Source: Candidatus Parendomicrobium reticulitermitis (GTDB lineage: Bacteria > Elusimicrobiota > Endomicrobiia > Endomicrobiales > Endomicrobiaceae). Taken from it: a stretch of 64,000 nt of DNA. Made by a program: the position numbers and the translations under genes. A model generated the notes under the pieces. That model did not search any database. It saw nothing but the letters and a program-made list of their open reading frames with translations, and was not told the origin of the DNA. This document shows, piece after piece, positions 14,390-60,907 of the stretch. The stretch covers positions 26,023 through 90,022 of the forward strand of contig JAITTG010000087.1 in NCBI GenBank assembly GCA_031287095.1. The letters run 5' to 3'. Every line of letters begins with the position of its first letter. Position 1 is the first letter of the stretch.

Positions 14390-15691
14390 TTAAACTATTT
14401 TAGAGGCTTCGTCAAAAGAGAGATTTCTTGATAAAGCGGCTTTTGCTATGTCTTCATATTCGGCTTTTGATTTTTTGACGCCGTAGCCTTGCCCGGTTTT
14501 GACTTTGATTTTGCCCAGATCGCTATCTTTTTGGCTGATTTTGCGTTCCAATATATATCTTTGACATACAGTTTTACGAATTCCAAAACTCGTTGTGTGT
14601 TTTAACATAAGAGCTGCAAAAAAGTCCGCTTTATCTATGGGACATAAGCATTCAAGCAAGAAAGCAGGGCGGGTTTTCTTCATATATATAGGTATAGTGA
14701 AAACATCTAATGCGCCATTTTTTAGCAAAATCTCTGATGCAAAACCGACTGCCTCGCCTGTCATATCGTCAAGATTGCAAGATAGTTGCGCGATTTCATC
14801 ATTATCTCCATTTGCCATTTCTGAATGCTCTCCACCTTGCATCGTTCCTGAATGCCCCCCCCCTTGCGTCATTCCCGAATGTCTCTGTCGGGAATTGTTT
14901 CCCACACCATAAAAAGCTCTAATGCAATTGGCAATGTCAAAATCTTTTTTTCCCATACCATAACCGATTTTTTCTATTGTCATCTGGGGCAGAGGTTCAA
15001 AATATTGGACAAAATGTTTGAGAATCGCCGCGCCTGTCGGGGTGCAAAGTTCTCCTTTTATTTGACTGCTATAAATTGGAATGCCTTGCAAAATTAAAGC
15101 GGACGCCGGCGCAGGAACTGGCAAAATGCCGTGCGCGCAATGAACAAAACCGCTTCCAACATTTATAGGCGACGCTATTATTTCATTGCAATCCAATATT
15201 TCCATAAGCAAACATACCGCTGTAATATCTGCAATAGCGTCTTTTTGACCTATTTCGTGAAAATGTATTTGTTCAACCGGGCGGTTATGAACTTTGCTTT
15301 CTGCCTCTGCAATGATTTTGTATATGGACAAAGCATTATCTTTTGATTTTTGAGATATTGGAAATGATAATAGTATTTTTTCTATATCGGCAAATCCGCT
15401 GCCGTGATGCCCTTTATGCTTATGAGTTTCATCATGATGAGAATGATGATGTTCGGCTTCTATATCAAAATCTTTTGCTATTTCTTCTTGCCCATCTATG
15501 CTCACATTCATAAGAGTTCCGTTAATAGCGCATTTTTGAGTTTTTTGGGCTGTGATTTTTACTCCGTCAAGACCGAGAGAATTGATTTTTTGCAAAAAGC
15601 CGTCTTTATCATCTATCAATTCAAACAAAGCCGCCGTTAACATATCGCCCGCCGCGCCCATAGAGCATTGTAAATAAAGAATTTTTTTCAC
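14390..15691 (-). CDS. larC: nickel-pincer cofactor nickel insertase LarC
   Basis: N-terminal CSMGAAGDM motif, His-rich stretch EAEHHHSHHDETHKHKGHHG, LarC/DUF111 architecture, adjacent to larB. Confidence 0.85.
   Translation of the reverse strand: MKKILYLQCSMGAAGDMLTAALFELIDDKDGFLQKINSLGLDGVKITAQKTQKCAINGTLMNVSIDGQEEIAKDFDIEAEHHHSHHDETHKHKGHHGSGFADIEKILLSFPISQKSKDNALSIYKIIAEAESKVHNRPVEQIHFHEIGQKDAIADITAVCLLMEILDCNEIIASPINVGSGFVHCAHGILPVPAPASALILQGIPIYSSQIKGELCTPTGAAILKHFVQYFEPLPQMTIEKIGYGMGKKDFDIANCIRAFYGVGNNSRQRHSGMTQGGGHSGTMQGGEHSEMANGDNDEIAQLSCNLDDMTGEAVGFASEILLKNGALDVFTIPIYMKKTRPAFLLECLCPIDKADFFAALMLKHTTSFGIRKTVCQRYILERKISQKDSDLGKIKVKTGQGYGVKKSKAEYEDIAKAALSRNLSFDEASKIV
14808..14895 (+). 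repeat. hairpin-repeat insertion (GTCATTCCCGAATGTCTCTGTCGGGAAT) plus three 27-nt half-repeat units and a C9/G9 tract, all in frame inside larC
   Basis: 14868-14895 matches the intergenic copies at 30962 and 49797 almost perfectly. It is translated on the minus strand as NSRQRHSGMTQ-GGG-HSGTMQGGE-HSEMANG. Homopolymer at 14855-14863. Confidence 0.8.
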
Positions 15692-28400: not shown

Positions 28401-29654
28401 ATGAACAAACCGCAACTTTTACTTCCTGCTGGAAATATGGACGCTTTTAAAACTGCCCTCTTATACGGCGCAGACGCCGTCTATGCCGGGTTGCCGTCTA
28501 TGAATTTGCGTTCAAGGGAAAATTTTCCTATTGAGGATTTACAGGAATGTATAAAAAAATCTCATAGTCTTGGCAAAAAAACATATCTTGCCTTAAATCT
28601 TTTTTCCCGCAATAAAGATATAGCGAAGTTAGACGCCGCTATTTCTACAATCAAATTTTTAAATCCCGACGGATTGATAATATCCGACCCGGGCATTTTT
28701 GCAAAAATCAAAAAAGAAATTCCAGACTTGCCTTTGAATGTCTCAACTCAGGCTAATGTTTGCTCTTGGCTTACTGTTGATTTTTGGCAAAAACAGGGGG
28801 CGGCTTTATGCGTTTTGGGACGAGAAGTTTCTTTTAAAGAGGCTGTAGAAATTAGAGAAAAATGTCCCGATACTAAACTTGAAATTTTTGTCCACGGCGC
28901 TATGTGCATCAGTTATTCAGGCAGATGTTTATTGTCCGCATTTATGGCTTCCCGCAGCGCTAATGCGGGGCTATGCGCCCACTCTTGCAGGTGGAAATAT
29001 AAAAGCAAATTGGTTTTGGAAGAAGAAATGCGCCCCAATGAATTTTTAGAACTTTATGAAGACGAGCAGGGCTCTTATATTTTAAATTCAAAAGATTTAT
29101 GCCTTATGCCAAAACTCAATCAAATTCTGTGCGCAGGTTTTGACTCTTTAAAAATAGAAGGCAGGAATAAAAGCGAATACTATATAGCCCAAACCGCCCG
29201 CGCTTATCGCAAAGCAATAGACGATTATTTTGAAAATCCAAAAGATTGGAAAGCAGACATTTATATGCAAGAACTTTTGACTTTGCAAAACAGAGGATAT
29301 ACTACGGCTTTTTTTGACGGCGTTCCAGACGGTTCTGATCAAAATTTTAACGATACGGCAAGCATTAGCGATTGGCAAAGTGCGGGAATAGTCAAAGGCT
29401 ATAAAGATTGCTTATTAGAAATTGAAGTGAAAAACAAAATTCAAAAAGGACAAGAAATAGAATTGTTATCCCCATATCAATTTGAACCGTTCAAAATTGT
29501 AATAGACAAAATGATTGATGGAAAAAACAATAAAGAAATAGATTTAATGTCTGCCGGCAAAACAGGACAAACAATAAAAATCCCAATCAAAGACGCCAAA
29601 TTGTTTCCAAAATATACTGTCGCTCGCAAGCGCTGTCCGTCATTGCAAGATTGA
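28401..29654 (+). CDS. peptidase U32 family protein
   Basis: MNKPQLLLPAGNMDAFKTALLYGADAVYAGL N-terminus and Cys-rich core (GAMCISYSGRCLLS...CAHSCRW). The last codons CPSLQD-stop lie in a GTCATTGC repeat. Confidence 0.8.
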   Translation: MNKPQLLLPAGNMDAFKTALLYGADAVYAGLPSMNLRSRENFPIEDLQECIKKSHSLGKKTYLALNLFSRNKDIAKLDAAISTIKFLNPDGLIISDPGIFAKIKKEIPDLPLNVSTQANVCSWLTVDFWQKQGAALCVLGREVSFKEAVEIREKCPDTKLEIFVHGAMCISYSGRCLLSAFMASRSANAGLCAHSCRWKYKSKLVLEEEMRPNEFLELYEDEQGSYILNSKDLCLMPKLNQILCAGFDSLKIEGRNKSEYYIAQTARAYRKAIDDYFENPKDWKADIYMQELLTLQNRGYTTAFFDGVPDGSDQNFNDTASISDWQSAGIVKGYKDCLLEIEVKNKIQKGQEIELLSPYQFEPFKIVIDKMIDGKNNKEIDLMSAGKTGQTIKIPIKDAKLFPKYTVARKRCPSLQD

Positions 29655-29904
29655 TTCGCAATCAGAATACAAACAATTTTAAAAGAGATTGGGCGGCATT
29701 TTCGTCATTGCGGGCTTGACCCGCAATCTCTGCTATCGCATTAGTTGTCAATTGCGCGCTTTGTCGTGTTTTCAGTCTGCGCATATCGCAGCGGCGGATT
29801 TCAAACCCGCCCAAAAAGTTGTCATTCTATACCGAGTCATTTTGTCTTGTCATTGCGCGTCCTGCGGCTTCACGCAGAATGACATATCAAAAAAGGAAAT
29901 TAAA

Positions 29905-30633
29905 ATGCCCCATTTTTATGTCTTACCTCAAAATACCGTCAATGGCAGTTTTTTTATGGAAGATGAACTCGCCCACTATGTTGCCGCCGTGCGTCGTTTT
30001 AAAGTCGGCGATGAAATAAATCTTTTTGACGGTCTTGGAAAATCTTTTAAGTGCGAAATTACAAGCATTGATAAAAACCGTATCAGCGGCAAAATTTTAT
30101 CTTCTTCGTATCAAAAGTCGTCTTTTGAAATCAATTTATATACCGCTATTCCCAAAGGCGAAAGATTTGAATGGCTTATAGAAAAATGCGCGGAACTCGG
30201 CATTTCAAAAATAATCCCTATAAATACTGCAAGAAGCGTTCTCACAGAAATTTCCGAAAACAAACTTGAAAGATTTAAAAGAATATCTATTTCGGCAAGT
30301 TCTCAATGCGGGCGCGCCGACATTATGGAAATTTGCCGTCCTTTGAATTTTCAAGACGCTTGCAAAAAAACCGTTTCAGACAAAACTATAAATATCTTGC
30401 CTTGGGAAAGTGAAAATAATCTGTCTATATTACAGGTTTTAAACGGAGAAACCTTAAAAGGCGGCAATGCCGCCGCTTTTATTGGACCCGAAGGCGGTTT
30501 TGAAAATTCTGAGATAGATTTTGCAAAAAGACTCGGCTTTCATACGGTAAGCCTTGGCAAAAACATTTTAAGGGTAGAAACCGCCGCCGTCGCTACAGCG
30601 GTATTAGTAATGTCGTCATTGCGCATATCGTAG
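29905..30633 (+). CDS. rsmE: 16S rRNA m3U1498 methyltransferase RsmE
   Basis: Start MPHFYV at 29905; the track ORF from 29689 reads through repeats. PUA-like N-terminus and a IGPEGGF SPOUT motif. The C-terminal SSLRIS is encoded by a repeat. Confidence 0.8.
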   Translation: MPHFYVLPQNTVNGSFFMEDELAHYVAAVRRFKVGDEINLFDGLGKSFKCEITSIDKNRISGKILSSSYQKSSFEINLYTAIPKGERFEWLIEKCAELGISKIIPINTARSVLTEISENKLERFKRISISASSQCGRADIMEICRPLNFQDACKKTVSDKTINILPWESENNLSILQVLNGETLKGGNAAAFIGPEGGFENSEIDFAKRLGFHTVSLGKNILRVETAAVATAVLVMSSLRIS

Positions 30634-30663
30634 GGGCGGGTTTCAAACCCGCCTATCCGCACG
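30630..30663 (+). repeat. GTAG-headed REP palindrome (GTAGGGGCGGGTTTCAAACCCGCC)
   Basis: Begins at the rsmE stop codon. Palindrome GGGCGGGTTT/AAACCCGCC preceded by GTAG. Confidence 0.75.
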
Positions 30664-30776: not shown

Positions 30777-31176
30777 AGACCTCTTGTATAATTGATATAC
30801 AAAAAATGTAAGAATATAAGGTTGTTATTGTGGACTTGCTATTCGTTGCGGGTTTGACCTGCGCGGTATAGAAAATATAAGCCATATTCAAATTAAGCGT
30901 CAATCTCGCAACCGCGGTAAAGCCGCGCCTATCGCATCATTCTCGAATGTTGCGCCAGCGCGTCATTCCCGAATGTCTCTGTCGGGAATCCATTTTTGCC
31001 ATTGCCTTTTTTAACTTGGATTCCCGATAACAAATTTCGGGAATGACGAATAAAAGGCTTGCCCTATTTTCAAGCGGGTTGATGACAACGGTAACTCGCT
31101 GTCATTGTGCGCCCCGCGATTTCGCGCAAAATGACAATGTCCGTCTATTTTTATATGTTGGTTGCGCAAGAGGTCT
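30777..31176 (+). mobile_element. non-autonomous TIR element (MITE), ~400 bp, carrying nested hairpin repeats
   Basis: Ends AGACCTCTTGT... and ...GCAAGAGGTCT are inverted repeats. Flanked by AAT (30774-30776) and AAT (31177-31179). Interior contains GTCATTCCCGA hairpins at 30962-30991 and 31018-31047. Confidence 0.7.
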
Positions 31177-36601: not shown

Positions 36602-36618
36602 ACCGTCGTAAAGAAAAC

Positions 36619-36948
36619 TAAAGTCAATCGCCACAATCAAACCCTGAAAGGGTTTAATGAAGTTAATAACCCCGTATTGCCTGCAAGGCTATGCGGGGGC
36701 GATAAAGTCAATCGCAACAATCAAACACTGAAAGGGTTTAATGCAGTTAATAACCCCGTATTGCCACAGGCTATGCGGGGACGATAAAGTCAATCGCCAC
36801 AACCAAACCCTGAAAGGGTTTAATGCAGTTAATAACCCCGTATTGCCGCAGGCTATGCGGGGACGATAAAGTCAATCGCCGCACCCAAACCCTGAAAGGG
36901 TTTAATGTAGTTAATAACCCCGTATTGCCTGCAAAGGCTATGCGGGGA
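36619..36948 (+). repeat. four tandem copies of the 82-nt two-hairpin leader element
   Basis: Copies at 36619-36702, 36703-36784, 36785-36866 and 36867-36948. Stems conserved, linker and loop variable. Ends 15 nt before the rSAM ATG. Confidence 0.9.
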
Positions 36949-43553: not shown

Positions 43554-46385
43554 ATGGACATCATCAAAATTCGCGGCGCGCGCCAGCACAATCTTAAAAA
43601 TATTGACTTGGATATTCCAAGAAATAAATTGGTTGTAATCACGGGACTTTCAGGTTCGGGTAAATCTTCTCTTGCTTTTAATACTATTTATGCCGAAGGG
43701 CAGAGGAGATATGTAGAGTCTCTTTCCGCTTATGCCCGCCAATTTTTAGAATTGCTTGAAAAACCCGATGTTGATATTATAGAAGGTCTTTCTCCCGCCA
43801 TATCTATAGAGCAAAGAAATCCGTCGCATAATCCTCGTTCCACTGTAGGCACTGTCACAGAAATTTATGATTATTTGAGGCTTTTATTTGCAAGAGTAGG
43901 CGTTCCTCATTGCCCTAAATGCGGTAAGGAAATTCACCCGCAATCAGCGCAGCAAATCATTGATGAAGTGATGAAAATTGCGGAAGGTTCTCTGATACAT
44001 ATATTGTCGCCTCTCATCAAAGGGCATACCGGAACTTACGAAGAACTTTTTGCCCGTCTTGCTAAAAGCGGATATACGAGAGTGAGAGTAGACGGTAAAG
44101 TTTATAATCTGGAAGATAAAATAGCGTTGGACAGATACAAAAAACACAGCATAGACATAGTTGTGGACAGAATAAAAATGAATGATACGGCAAGAGCAAG
44201 AGTTGCAAGTTCTATTGAGACGGCATTAAAAGAATCAAAAGGTCTTGCGGCGGCGGCTATTGTCTCAAAGGATGGAAAAGTTTTGTCCGAACAGATTTTT
44301 AGCGAAAAATATTCTTGTATAGATTGCGGTATAAGCATTTTAGAAATTGAGCCGCGCTTATTTTCTTTCAATACCCCTTTTGGCGCTTGCCCTGAATGCT
44401 CAGGTCTTGGCAATAAAATTGAAATTGATGAAAATTTAGTAGTGCCGGACAAAAAAAGAGCGATAAAATACGGAGCAATCGCCGCTTGGTCTGAGCCTAT
44501 TACCACAAGAACAAATAGATGGAAAAATTCTTGGGGCGGCTATTATTGGGATTTATTAAGCGAGGCGGCAAAACGCAACAAAATCCCGCTTGAAAAACCT
44601 TGGGAAGAATTGTCAAGAAAGCAGCAAGAGATTATGTTATACGGCGACGGCGGTTTTGAAGGCGTGATTACCAATATGAAGCGCCGTTACGACGAGACAG
44701 AATCCGATTTTGTCCGCGAAGAAATTTTTAATAAGTATATGAGTTCAAAAATTTGCCCGTCTTGCAAAGGCAAAAGGTTAAAAAAAGAGGCTCTGTCTGT
44801 TCTTATAGACAATAAGTCCATAGCCGATATTACAAAAATGTCAGTAGAGCAAAGTTTAAAATTTTTTGGCGAGATTGAATTCAGCGCAAAAAACAAAATC
44901 ATCAGCAAAGCCGTATTAAAAGAAATCAAAGACAGGCTGTTTTTTCTAAACAATGTCGGGCTTGGCTATTTGAGTTTGGCAAGGGAAAGCGGCACGCTTT
45001 CAGGCGGGGAGGGGCAAAGGATACATCTTGCCACGCAAATCGGCTCTGGTCTTACGGGAGTTTTATATGTTTTAGACGAGCCTTCTATCGGTCTTCATCA
45101 AAGAGACAATGATAAATTGCTTGAAACTTTAAGAAAACTCAGAGATTTAGGAAATTCGTTGATAGTGGTAGAGCATGACGAGGACACAATAAGAGCGGCG
45201 GATTTTGTTATTGATTTAGGTCCCGGCGCGGGAACGCATGGCGGGCAAATCACCGGGATAGGAACGCCGTCAGATATAATCAAATCTAAAAAATCTATCA
45301 CGGGACAATATCTAAACGGCAAACTCAGCATCCCTCTTCCCAAAAAGAGAAAACAGCCGTCTGGCAAATGCTTGAGCGTCAAAGGCGCGTCTCATTTCAA
45401 TTTAAAAAATATAAATATTGATATACCGCTCGGTTTATTTGTCTGCATAAGCGGAGTGTCGGGCAGCGGAAAATCCACTTTGGTTCATGAAATCATATAT
45501 AAAAATCTTGCTCAGTCCATTTATGGCTCAAAGGCTCAGCCCGGAAAATTCAAAGAGATGAATGGTATGGAAAATATAGACAAAGTTGTAATTGTCGACC
45601 AATCTCCCATAGGCAGAACGCCGCGTTCAAATCCCGTCACCTATACGGGCGCATTTACTATCGTCAGAGATTTGTTTGCTCAAATGCCTGAGTCCAAAGC
45701 GAGAGGTTATACTTCCGGCAGATTTTCTTTTAATGTTAAAGGCGGCAGATGCGAAAATTGTCAAGGCGACGGAACTTTAAAAATAGCGATGCAATTTCTG
45801 CCCGACCTTTATGTCAATTGCGACATTTGCAACGGTAAAAGGTTTAATGACGAGACTTTGCAAATAAAATATAAAGGTAAAAACATATACGAAATTTTGG
45901 ATATGACTATAGAAGAAGGCGTTAAATTCTTTGAAAACATTCCAACGCTAAAAAGAATTTTAGAAACAATAAACGATGTGGGATTAGGCTATATAAAACT
46001 CGGACAACCCGCCACAACTCTTTCCGGCGGCGAAGCCCAAAGGGTAAAACTTGCATCAGAACTTTCCAAAAGAGCCACAGGCAGAACAATTTACATTCTT
46101 GACGAGCCGACAACTGGCTTACATTTTGCCGATGTAGGAAAACTTTTAGAAGTTTTGCAGCGGCTAACTTATGCGGGCAACACAGTTTTGGTAATAGAGC
46201 ATAATTTAGATGTGTTAAAAACCGCAGATTGGATAATAGATTTAGGTCCTGAAGGCGGCGAAGCCGGGGGCAAAATAATCGCTGCGGGATCTCCCGAACA
46301 AATAATAAAAAACCAAAAATCATGGACAGGGCAGTATTTGAAAGCGCATATAGGACAAAAGAAATTGTCGTCATTGCGGACTTGA
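43554..46385 (+). CDS. uvrA: excinuclease ABC subunit A
   Basis: 943 aa. [42 protein letters not shown], two ABC modules and Zn-finger Cys pairs. The last codons SSLRT-stop lie in a repeat. Confidence 0.95.
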
Positions 46386-46449
46386 CTTGAAAAAGTCCAC
46401 AAAGCATTTTGAGGCAAACGACGGAGATTGCGGCTCAAGCCTGCAATGA
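46369..46449 (+). repeat. 81-bp double-hairpin element with GTCATTGCGG...CCTGCAATGAC inverted termini
   Basis: Overlaps the uvrA stop. Homologous element at 48207-48285 overlapping the tgt stop. Single hairpins at 29639, 29704, 30615, 58120, 10830 and 11675. Confidence 0.75.
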
Positions 46450-46554
46450 CAAAACTGATTGTAAGATGACGCTATAAATTATTTATAAATTTTTAGTTTT
46501 CTCGTTCAATATGATATAATTGCCGCGGTTTTGAAGCATTGTCGGCAGTTCTTT

Positions 46555-46646
46555 GGAGGGGTCGCATAGTTGGCCTAGTGCGCTGGTTTGCTAAACCGGT
46601 ATACGGATGAAAGTCCGTATCGAGGGTTCAAATCCCTCCCCCTCCG
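46555..46646 (+). tRNA. tRNA-Ser (anticodon GCU), class II with long variable arm
   Basis: GGAGGGG acceptor pairing with CCCCTCC. Anticodon loop TT-GCT-AA on a CTGGT/ACCGG stem. Variable arm hairpin ATACGGA/TCCGTAT. T-arm GAGGGTTCAAATCCCTC. CCA not encoded. Confidence 0.9.
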
Positions 46647-46722
46647 TCCGTTTTTGACGAGATATGATGCGGTAAAGTCCGCCTTAAAAAAGATATTCAA
46701 AATCAGGAAATACTATAAATCA

Positions 46723-46757
46723 AACACCTTTCGGTATTTTGCCGAAGGTGTTTTTTG
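46723..46757 (+). terminator. rho-independent terminator after tRNA-Ser
   Basis: AACACCTTTCGG-TATTTT-GCCGAAGGTGTT followed by a T-run. Confidence 0.75.
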
Positions 46758-47081: not shown

Positions 47082-48221
47082 ATGCAAATAGGAGATTGGC
47101 AGTTTTTAAAAAAATCTTCCGAGTGCCGCGCAAGATTGGGGAAAGTTTTTACTTTGCGCGGTATTATTGATACGCCCGCTTTTATGCCTGTGGGAACGCA
47201 AGGCAGCGTTAAGGGCGTGCCTATGGAATTTTTAAAGAATTCTAAAGCGCAGATTATTCTTGCTAATTCTTATCACTTATATTTGCGTCCGGGAACTGAA
47301 ATTGTCAAAAATGCCGGCGGCATACAAAAATTTAATTCTTGGGATAAACCTATGCTTACCGATTCCGGCGGGTTTCAAATTTTTAGTTTAAACGATATTA
47401 GGAAAATCAAAGACGACGGAGTAGAATTCAAATCCCATATAGACGGCTCAACTCACTTTTTTTCTCCCGAAAAATCTATGCAAATTCAAAAAGATATAGG
47501 CGCGGATATTATCATGGCTTTTGACGATTGCACTCCTTATCCCGCCGATTATGACTATGCAAAAAAGTCTATGGAATTAAGCCTCAAATGGGCGGCAAGA
47601 TGTAAAGAAGAATTTTATAAAGACGATTCTTGCGATAGGCAGGCGCTTTTTGGAATTGTGCAAGGCTCTGTTTATGATGATTTACGCAAAATCAGCGCTG
47701 AATCTATGCAGGAAATTGATTTTGTAGGCTATGCCATAGGCGGTCTTTCCGTAGGCGAGCCGAAAGAGGATATGCGCAGAATTTTAGATAATATATGTCC
47801 AATTTTGCCTGATAATAAAGCGCGCTATCTTATGGGCGTTGGTATGCCTGAGGATTTATGGGAATGCGTTGAGCGGGGAATAGATATGTTTGATTGCGTA
47901 ATCCCGACGAGAAATGGGCGCAATGGACAGGTTTTTACAAGTCAAGGCAAAATCAATATAAGAAATGCCCAATATAGACAAGACTTTACCGCTCTTGACC
48001 CAGACTGCGATTGTCCCGCCTGCAAAGGATATACAAAAGCATATCTCAATCATTTAGTCCGCGCCCAAGAAACTTTATATCTCGCTCTTTTATCCGTCCA
48101 CAATATATATTTTATGCTAAATCTAATGGAAAAAATAAGGCAATCCCTTGCTAACGACGCATTCTTTGAAGCCAAAACAAATTTTTTCAAAAATTATTAT
48201 AAGTCGTCATTACAAGTTTGA
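47082..48221 (+). CDS. tgt: queuine tRNA-ribosyltransferase
   Basis: TPAFMPVGTQGSVKG, LTDSGGFQ and a CDCPAC zinc motif. The C-terminal SSLQV-stop is encoded by a repeat. Confidence 0.95.
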   Translation: MQIGDWQFLKKSSECRARLGKVFTLRGIIDTPAFMPVGTQGSVKGVPMEFLKNSKAQIILANSYHLYLRPGTEIVKNAGGIQKFNSWDKPMLTDSGGFQIFSLNDIRKIKDDGVEFKSHIDGSTHFFSPEKSMQIQKDIGADIIMAFDDCTPYPADYDYAKKSMELSLKWAARCKEEFYKDDSCDRQALFGIVQGSVYDDLRKISAESMQEIDFVGYAIGGLSVGEPKEDMRRILDNICPILPDNKARYLMGVGMPEDLWECVERGIDMFDCVIPTRNGRNGQVFTSQGKINIRNAQYRQDFTALDPDCDCPACKGYTKAYLNHLVRAQETLYLALLSVHNIYFMLNLMEKIRQSLANDAFFEAKTNFFKNYYKSSLQV

Positions 48222-48342
48222 CCCGCAATATTCCCGCGAAGCGTTTTGAGGCAAACAATAACGGAGATTGCGGGGCAAGACAGCAGGCGGCGGAAGGTAA
48301 AAACGGATTTTTAGGCAGCCTCGTTTATCACAAGGAATTATT

Positions 48343-49716: not shown

Positions 49717-49796
49717 CACATAAAGAATTGCCGTAAAATATAGCGAGCGCTTCATGACAAACCTGAATTCACATTCCCAAATGCCGCGCCTGCTGC

Positions 49797-49826
49797 GTCA
49801 TTCCCGAATGTCTCTGTCGGGAATCC
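49797..49826 (+). repeat. hairpin repeat GTCATTCCCGA-ATGTCTCTG-TCGGGAATCC
   Basis: Identical to 30962-30991 and nearly identical to 14868-14895 inside larC. Degenerate copies at 19399 and 59990-60060. Confidence 0.8.
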
Positions 49827-60649: not shown

Positions 60650-60665
60650 TTGTATCTCCTTGTGT

Positions 60666-60907
60666 CCCCGCATAGCCTTGCGGGCAATATCGGGTTATTA
60701 ACGACATTAAACCCTTTCAGGGTTTGGGTGGCGATCGGTCTATCATCCCCGCATAGCCTGCGGCAATACGGGGTTATTAACAACATTGAACCCTTTCAGT
60801 GTTTATGGGTGGTAAATTGGTCTATCATCCCCGCATAGCCTGCGGCAATGCGGGGTTATCAACGACATTAAACCCTTTCAGTGTTTGGTTGTGACGATTG
60901 ATTTTAG
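60666..60907 (-). repeat. three tandem copies of the 82-nt two-hairpin leader element
   Basis: Copies at 60666-60746, 60747-60828 and 60829-60907. Co-oriented with DUF1844. The last copy ends 16 nt before the ATG. Confidence 0.9.

Follow-up and report, generated by a model that had tools for sequence, protein, structure and literature searches.

Why should several otherwise unrelated genes of one bacterium finish in the same few residues and the same stop codon? The question arises from a 64,000-nucleotide stretch of the genome of Candidatus Parendomicrobium reticulitermitis (Elusimicrobiota, a termite-gut relative of Endomicrobium; assembly GCA_031287095.1, contig JAITTG010000087.1, positions 26,023 to 90,022, or C52:26023-90022 in our contig numbering), here called the window, in which uvrA, tgt, rsmE and a U32 peptidase gene all run out within repeated hairpin sequence. 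The assembly, referred to as G000, comprises 2.16 Mb in 125 contigs at 37.7% G+C and is 90% complete. A first-pass annotation of the window had suggested that the repeat either targets the extreme 3' ends of genes, replacing their native termini, or supplies a short S-L-R/Q tail that is tolerated or even used, with the hairpin possibly serving as a terminator. As set out below, the ending of genes by this repeat is real and is essentially an ordinary by-product of repeat spread. Very probably, and with the parts of this explanation judged jointly, the 82-bp repeat is a CGTC-tagged repetitive extragenic palindrome (REP), or Ssn-type motif, in inverted dimer form, a gene-less counterpart of a REP-ssn-REP module that resembles a miniature inverted-repeat transposable element; the family has expanded within this Endomicrobium-related genus only recently, and its copies at gene ends are scars that passed a reading-frame filter.

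The full element reads GTCATTGCGGGCTTGACCCGCAATCTCC - CCGCGAAGCGTTTTTGAGGCAAACGAC - GGAGATTGCGGGTCAAGCCCGCAATGAC, two inverted copies of one unit with their tags facing outward on either side of a conserved 26-nt spacer. This dimer is the prevailing form in the genome. Each CGTC-tagged unit (CGTCATTGCGGGCTTGACCCGCAATCTCC) is built from a (C/T)GTC tag, an 8-bp stem (ATTGCGGG/CCCGCAAT), a 5-nt loop that is either CTTGA or CAAGA, and the tail CTCC. In a logo compiled from 133 heads, position -1 of the tag is C in 64% and T in 32%, followed by G (89%), T (97%) and C (94%), and at least 7 of the 8 stem pairs are kept in 121 of 160 heads located away from gene ends. One strand of the consensus dimer is predicted to fold as a single long hairpin (-60.6 kcal/mol, z = -11.8). 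Allowing at most one mismatch, the window contains 13 copies of the head GTCATTGCGG where 3.1 are expected, with none of 100 shuffles reaching 13, and the genome contains 115 where 1.8 are expected. Searching the genome with an nhmmer profile of the dimer identified 154 element loci, 111 of them in intergenic spacers; 67 alignments span the whole dimer model, a figure counted on both strands, so that one locus may score twice. The flanks of the heads share just a weak K-Y-Y plus T-rich preference. Heads number 125 in G000 and 64 in G001, the sister genome of the same genus (assembly 63% complete), compared with 13 in a further genus and close to zero across another 26 relatives. A literature search with the repeat's sequence strings returned no matches, and an Rfam scan of the 64-kb window reported two tRNAs alone, with no known RNA family at the repeat elements.

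The coding properties of the consensus are equally distinctive. Owing to the palindromic ends, a six-frame reading finds both strands alike: frame 1 reads VIAGLTRNL..., frame 2 reads S-L-R-A-stop (G TCA TTG CGG GCT TGA), in which the TGA belongs to the loop CTTGA, and frame 3 is open from end to end on either strand, encoding HCGLDPQSP...EIAGQARND. Among 1744 ORF-based genes (ORF, open reading frame), eight end in SL[RQ]x, against 0.78 expected from tripeptide frequency, and all eight do so on a repeat head: uvrA, tgt, the U32 peptidase gene, a RelA/SpoT homologue (rel), rsmD, xseA, the gene for a C-terminal subunit of transketolase, and one further gene, C48:1660-3528. The genome-wide count proposed in the first-pass annotation lies above chance. 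In every profile-defined copy, the repeat-supplied stop ends at offset 16 of the head, and looser matching adds three real cases in which the stop lies deeper within decayed copies. The residues that follow SL vary, with R or Q succeeded by T, V, D, A, S or N.

All four gene endings originally quoted are present in the sequence as written: tcg tca ttg cgg act TGA for uvrA, where the head GTCATTGCGG starts at 46370, tcg tca tta caa gtt TGA for tgt, ccg tca ttg caa gat TGA for the U32 peptidase gene and tcg tca ttg cgc ata tcg TAG for rsmE. In the first three the TGA is indeed that of the hairpin loop CTTGA. Pfam confirms the identities of the four genes, whose domains finish 6-12 residues before the repeat-encoded stops, and none of the four contains an earlier in-frame stop. 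The proposal that all four end in the head of the same repeat needs amendment for rsmE, which shares the head but draws its TAG from an adjoining hairpin of another family. This GTAG-tagged family, GTAG-GGGCGGGTTTCAAACCCGCC, has 69 pattern matches in the genome, where it coexists with the CGTC families, and its TAG forms the stop of rsmE, of a CCA-adding/poly(A) polymerase gene (C26:4602-4630) and probably of one more gene, three in all. The copy at rsmE is predicted to fold at -18.3 kcal/mol. A longer ORF with a start at 29689 had also been considered for rsmE and was rejected as an artefact of reading through repeats.

The copies at gene ends differ widely in state of preservation. At uvrA, as first described, two inverted units surround the conserved centre in a dimer of 82 bp, and the 3' arm of the left hairpin has decayed (-27 kcal/mol, z -2.6). 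The tgt copy, described in the same terms, is instead a variant of the REP dimer, with the head GTCATTAC at 48206, the spacer AAGCGTTTTGAGGCAAAC and a right arm replaced by GCAGGCGGCGG...; its 5' arm is mutated, its right end is variant or truncated, and it folds at -22 kcal/mol (z -1.0). The copy that ends the U32 peptidase gene is a decayed solo hairpin with a fold that is not significant (-3.6 kcal/mol, z -0.3). It forms part of a block of repeats in which this decayed head (29638-29664) is followed by a solo head that is still intact (29703-29731), then by a GTAG-like hairpin (about 29778-29812) and finally by a GTCATTGCGCG...CGCAGAATGAC dimer (29849-29886).

Comparison with the sister genome G001 shows what these genes looked like without the element. 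In G001, tgt continues from TAT TAT into TCA AGG ATA TAA (native ...YY-SRI-stop), whereas in G000 the insert sits directly after TAT TAT, and the displaced native tail is still recognisable 129 nt downstream, at about 48328-48340. Similarly, the U32 peptidase gene of G001 closes with ...ARQ KGN-stop and leaves 1 nt to the rsmE ATG; in G000 the repeat block follows ...ARK, and the native end AAA GGA AAT TAA survives at 29892-29903, again 1 nt before the rsmE ATG. The replacement of native termini that had been suggested is therefore directly visible in both genes, their native tails lying downstream of the inserts. For the others, the evidence comes from alignment with orthologues. The relatives' UvrA proteins end 5-15 residues past a conserved YLK with tails unrelated to one another, and the element is absent from uvrA of G001; Rel differs from its relatives just in the last 4-5 residues; and the last 7 residues of RsmE stand in for a 9-residue tail in G001. 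Truncation of rel by the element was considered and is ruled out, the Rel proteins of relatives being equally short (482-506 aa). Across uvrA, rel and rsmE the mismatch with relatives is confined to the last 4-9 residues, and the orthologues of G001 lack SL tails. In total, the insertions displace 2-9 dispensable native residues per gene, and a short tail is tolerated, as had been suggested.

Gene ends are not the sole coding positions occupied by the element. Sixteen genes carry it mid-ORF, in frame, and almost always in the HCG...ARND frame. Most of these inserts fall between Pfam domains, as in RecG (wedge/helicase), NadB (FAD/C-terminal), an FAD-oxidase (N/C), a PIF1-like helicase and MiaB (UPF0004/radical-SAM), and others lie within tolerant domains, namely the MetH B12 cap, an ABC ATPase, a poly(A) polymerase head and the C-terminal part of DHQ synthase. 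The NadB insert adds a net 13-15 residues to an unconserved linker and is absent from G001 and from four other relatives; the relatives of RecG align solely downstream of its insert, so that this alignment is uninformative on the insert itself. Taken with the frames of the consensus, these patterns suggest a mechanism in which copies would insert more or less anywhere and the reading frame would decide which of them survive in or beside genes. Frame-3 copies would persist as in-frame inserts of roughly 13-30 residues in linkers; a frame-2 copy in the last few codons would swap 2-9 dispensable residues for SL(R/Q)x-stop and be tolerated; and copies in other positions and frames would be purged. 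Gene-terminal copies would then be neutral or slightly deleterious scars, in which the translated hairpin arm decays afterwards.

An element that recognised the stop-codon region, inserted there site-specifically and thus aimed at extreme 3' ends would account for eight genes that end in the element at one offset, and might also be suggested by the clustering of 4 of the 9 repeat-terminated genes within 19 kb of one another in the window and by the tendency of REPs in other bacteria to lie mostly at most 20 bp from the ends of upstream ORFs (PMC3733652). The genome-wide distribution nevertheless gives no sign of such targeting. Loci in tandem, convergent and divergent spacers number 83, 21 and 7, against 80.5, 17.3 and 13.2 expected from spacer length, and within tandem spacers 47 loci lie nearer the upstream stop and 36 nearer the downstream start (p = 0.27); many other copies sit mid-gene or before starts. 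In tgt and the U32 peptidase gene, moreover, the element entered 3 codons ahead of the native stop and not at it, and nothing stronger than the K-Y-Y/T-rich preference is shared among flanks. The fixed offset is accounted for by the element's own frame-2 stop, which pools every frame-2 insertion whatever its insertion point. A sister family with head GTCATTCCCG, which is dRS3-like and has 190 copies, is free of stops in all forward frames of its head and ends no gene. In favour of targeting, the count lies somewhat above a rough neutral estimate: a density of 0.475 same-strand heads per nt immediately behind stops, multiplied by about 5-10 tolerated codon positions, would predict 2.4-4.8 cases, and offset-16 endings number 6 with strict heads or 8 with looser matching. 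This is at most a mild excess, and a mild preference for gene ends may exist. We regard targeting of 3' ends, the first alternative in the first-pass annotation, as unlikely.

We consider it quite improbable that selection maintains either the SL(R/Q)x tail or the stop-codon hairpin for a function, whether as a stabiliser or terminator, a brake on translation termination or a C-terminal signal. Enterobacterial REPs are generally known as mRNA stabilisers and transcription attenuators (summarised in PMC3733652). The consensus dimer of the present repeat is very stable. Liang, Rudd and Deutscher (2015) reportedly found that, in E. coli, REPs no farther than about 15 nt from a stop codon cut translation via ribosome stalling. 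The gene-end copies, however, are the most decayed. Their head hairpins are weaker, with a mean of -4.4 kcal/mol compared with -7.7 elsewhere (one-sided p = 0.03, n = 6), a difference that fits decay or relief of structure and not maintenance, and the U32 and tgt copies fold no better than shuffled sequence. In G001 these genes have neither the tails nor the elements, and the residues after SL vary as decay predicts; with the translated arm decaying in most gene-end copies, the notion that the tail is used finds no backing. Nor does anything support a role as terminator: no terminator-like site was found at the elements behind uvrA and tgt, the hairpins being followed by no U-tract. Neisseria SsnA, furthermore, reads its motif as DNA and not as RNA (PMC11893778). 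At the RNA level the hairpin may still act as an exonuclease barrier or a termination brake. An origin in artefact, through metagenome contigs mis-joined at repeats or ORF calls that overrun true stops, is brought to mind by a 125-contig assembly that is 90% complete, by the standing of repeats as classic break and mis-join points, and by ORF-based calls that had already produced the false rsmE start. Against it, the flanks of the tgt and U32 inserts are collinear with G001 on a single contig and the displaced native tail is present, none of the four genes has an earlier in-frame stop, and the conserved protein cores reach within 4-9 residues of the repeat stops; an artefact is a very remote prospect.

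The explanation preferred here, a frame-filtered REP-type repeat, gains from comparison with known systems. CGTC-tagged REPs were described as a superfamily that takes in Neisseria dRS3 and Rickettsia RPE-4 and RPE-6, that forms dimers and intragenic copies, that lies close to or overlaps ORF ends, with many copies in repair genes including uvrA, and whose REP termini can provide stop codons (Di Nocera, De Gregorio and Rocco 2013, BMC Genomics 14:522, PMC3733652). The present element shares the unpaired CGTC/TGTC tag, a stem of 8 bp whose first pairs are A-T and T-A, a loop of 5 nt and a tail that is short and unpaired; the inverted dimers with a conserved spacer; the hundreds of mostly intergenic copies; the encoding of 20-30 residues by some intragenic copies, about a tenth of intragenic copies lying at ORF ends; and the lack of a tyrosine transposase flanked by the REP, which is also a feature of the superfamily (PMC3733652). 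It differs in that Elusimicrobiota is outside the five phyla listed for the superfamily, in that the tail is CTCC compared with the consensus CCA, and in that the stop derives from the loop TGA (CTTGA) in frame 2 and not from the tag. The closer match to REP termini that donate stops (PMC3733652) is the GTAG hairpin at rsmE.

Two further groups of repeats resemble the element in behaviour or architecture. The Rickettsia palindromic elements (RPEs, reviewed in PMC10969869) likewise place an in-frame palindrome in housekeeping genes, here those for RecG, MetH, NadB, MiaB, AroB, an ABC ATPase and others, where it encodes a short peptide mostly between domains. RPEs are about 100-150 bp in length, whereas the present unit is 82 bp and also donates stop codons; the likeness is one of behaviour. 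In REP doublets forming hairpins, or REPINs, which are associated with the REP-associated tyrosine transposase RAYT (Bertels and Rainey 2011, cited in PMC3733652), an inverted REP doublet that forms one long hairpin is similarly the repeated unit. The CGTC element, in contrast, has a CGTC and not a GTAG tag, and the sole Y1 transposase gene in the genome is not flanked by this REP; the hairpin that supplies the rsmE stop does bear GTAG. A RAYT was also tried as the mobiliser of the CGTC repeat and rejected, since the Y1 gene (C95:5227-5571) is flanked by other hairpins, TCAACCCCGAAGGGGTTGA, and in the relative G003, too, the hairpins at the Y1 gene are not those of this repeat.

A possible mobiliser is suggested by the NTS/SRM (Ssn-related) motifs, which like Neisseria dRS3 belong to the CGTC-tagged class; copies of them border the genes of Ssn proteins, small GIY-YIG nucleases whose cuts in single-stranded DNA fall next to the motif (Chenal et al. 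2025, Nat Commun 16:2388, PMC11893778); Neisseria SsnA binds its motif as single-stranded DNA, not RNA (PMC11893778). Three small GIY-YIG genes were found in G000. One, on contig C5, has a REP dimer directly on one side and an inverted REP directly on the other, both of the ATTGCGGG-type family. A second, on contig C101, encodes a protein 46% identical to the C5 protein and is bracketed by perfect inverted units of ~40 nt, GTCATTCTGCGCGAAGCCGCAGAATCCGTAAAATGCCGTT, which belong to a third CGTC family whose head, GTCATTCTGCG, occurs 64 times in the genome. As the C5 and C101 genes are flanked by different families, each putative nuclease appears to have its own hairpin family within one genome. 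The arrangement parallels the Ssn/SRM system in placing a small single-domain GIY-YIG gene between two inverted motif copies (here and in at least four genomes of other phyla), in the hundreds of gene-less copies per genome, and in a CGTCAT tag that orients the hairpin. It departs from that system in that the ATTGCGGG unit and two other CGTC families fall outside the published motif pattern, and in that the commonest family, GTCATTCCCG, has no ssn-like gene that could be found. Since the module geometry matches that of the gene-less 82-bp dimer, the dimer is best read as a gene-less form of the REP-ssn-REP module, and the putative nuclease may be what mobilises it. Among 30 relatives, ssn-like genes are widespread (46-57% identity), and co-occurrence of the repeat with them or with Y1_Tnp genes is uninformative given a sister genome that is just 63% complete.

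Besides the small excess of offset-16 endings, several observations weigh against this explanation. The published SRM pattern, HGTCWYN(0-2)YYVSBRHN(0-5)WNVSBRGN(0-2)RNCYNB, matches none of the three CGTC family consensuses here, while a Neisseria NTS control does match. The C5 protein, Ssn-like by sequence, has no PDB relative, and NCBIfam has no Ssn model, which makes its membership of clade cd10448 that of a candidate. No ssn-like gene was found in G001, a 63%-complete assembly that contains 64 heads. The two REP units, being inverted, give the element terminal inverted repeats like those of a classical element derived from a DDE transposon, and comparison of the two empty sites, in tgt and the U32 peptidase gene, revealed no clear target-site duplication, with at most a possible TTAT at tgt. 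Finally, the gene counts are founded on ORF calls and not on a curated annotation.

How far does the unit extend beyond this genus? An exact 26-nt core, CATTGCGGGCTTGACCCGCAATCTCC, was recovered from at least 116 stretches of Bacteroidota, Sulfurovum, Hydromonas/Formosimonas, Desulfuromonadales, Lachnospiraceae, Coriobacteriales and others (L081-L196, picked solely for carrying this core), sampled from termite gut, rumen, caves and lakes. The identical core is present in at least six phyla-level groups, namely Bacteroidota, Campylobacterota, Betaproteobacteria, Firmicutes, Actinobacteria and Elusimicrobiota, and each lineage has its own spacer and dimer partner, such as GGAGATGGCGGATGTTCCTCCGCCATGAC in rumen Bacteroidales for the partner. 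Homologues of the C5 protein, 47-62% identical, are encoded in 7 of the 116 core-bearing stretches, and in 4 of these 7 (L107, L118, L148 and L164) the gene is enclosed, at a distance of about 60 nt or less, by two inverted units whose tags point outward. Among 127 heads from other phyla, at most one plausible case (L083) of a gene ended by the same loop TGA was found; other long frames looked non-coding or repeat-built. We tentatively raise the idea, which at present we consider doubtful, that the ATTGCGGG-type unit represents an uncatalogued specificity class of mobile REP-ssn-REP elements moving between phyla, in which the GIY-YIG nuclease would copy both the module and the dimers and the unit sequence would have been moulded so as to do no harm within coding DNA. 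Bearing on this idea are the identical 26-nt core, the module geometry in at least five genomes, and recent insertions with empty sites. If it were true, the combination of the same peptides on both strands, one open frame and one immediate stop would explain how the element colonises both the interiors and the last codons of essential genes.

For annotation, the SSLRT and SSLQV tails and the HCGLDPQSP...EIAGQARND peptides in this lineage are to be read as repeat scars and not as conserved protein features, and, as the false rsmE start illustrates, ORFs with either end in these repeats call for caution. The locus offers a clean, dated example of reading-frame filtering of where a selfish hairpin repeat persists, and it brings Elusimicrobiota into the range of the CGTC-REP/Ssn-motif class, through a unit missed by the published pattern; by itself it opens no new mechanism. 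Coordinates of the principal features are collected in the table.

Table. Location of genes, repeat copies and nuclease modules (window positions, or contig and position for features given as C-number).
Feature	Location	Strand	Evidence and remarks
uvrA coding sequence	43554..46385	+	Pfam UvrA_inter, UvrA_DNA-bind; ORF list; last five codons SSLRT + TGA in repeat head
uvrA stop codon	46383..46385	+	TGA of hairpin loop CTTGA, head offset 14-16
82-bp inverted dimer at uvrA end	46369..46450	.	nhmmer match C52:72392-72472, 58.8 bits; conserved centre
tgt coding sequence	47082..48221	+	Pfam TGT residues 15-373 of 379; alignment with 11 relatives; tail KSSLQV-stop instead of native SRI-stop
tgt-end insertion, 129 nt	48201..48329	.	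G000/G001 pairwise alignment; clean 129-column gap, flanks about 90% identical
U32 peptidase coding sequence	28401..29654	+	Pfam Peptidase_U32, U32_C; tail (R)CPSLQD-stop from decayed solo REP head
Repeat block in last U32 codons, about 260 nt	29631..29891	.	Sequence and G001 comparison
rsmE coding sequence	29905..30633	+	Pfam PUA_4, Methyltrans_RNA; ATG conserved with G001; relatives 241-251 aa
Composite rsmE end	30614..30653	+	Head fragment CGTCATTGCGC 30614-30624, then GTAG-GGGCGGGTTTCAAACCCGCC hairpin 30630-30653; TAG stop 30631-30633
Mid-gene copy, RecG	C64:1399-1481		
Mid-gene copy, MetH	C76:22278-22342		
Mid-gene copy, NadB	C52:100331-100395		
Mid-gene copy, MiaB	C24:16125-16160		
Mid-gene copy, AroB	C83:18674-18744		
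Mid-gene copy, ABC ATPase	C54:3636-3718		
Other mid-gene copies	C26:3322-3386; C19:768-850; C19:2139-2221; C77:4360-4440; C1:1550-1611; and others		
Ssn-like GIY-YIG gene, 115 aa	C5:56915-57259		Pfam GIY-YIG 57 bits; between REP dimer and inverted REP of ATTGCGGG-type family
Whole C5 module, REP dimer-gene-inverted REP	C5:56876-57361 (L203/L205)		
Second Ssn-like gene, 99 aa	C101:2082-2378		46% identical to C5 protein; region C101:1990-2440 (L202)

Several side observations concern these loci and the other repeat families. The C5 module is followed by a tandem array of ~22-nt units (GCATTGATTGTCCGCAATGACG), and related arrays of head fragments are found on contigs C14 and C112. The commonest CGTC family, with the unit GTCATTCCCGAATGTCTCTGTCGGGAATCC (head GTCATTCCCG, 190 copies), has examples in the window at 14845-14895, 30939-30989 and 49774-49824; no Ssn-like gene flanked by this family was found in the 90%-complete assembly. 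Downstream of uvrA, the first terminator-like site lies at 46728-46748, beyond a tRNA gene at 46555-46646; the stretch 46386-46750 holds no terminator before the tRNA, which may be co-transcribed with uvrA through the repeat. The Y1 (IS200/RAYT-like) transposase gene (region C95:4700-6100, L021) is also flanked by units like the other 82-nt two-hairpin repeat of this genome, GGTTATTAAC...CATTGAATGCTTTCAG, which occurs in the window at 36602-36931 and 60655-60907 and may be mobilised by the Y1 transposase.

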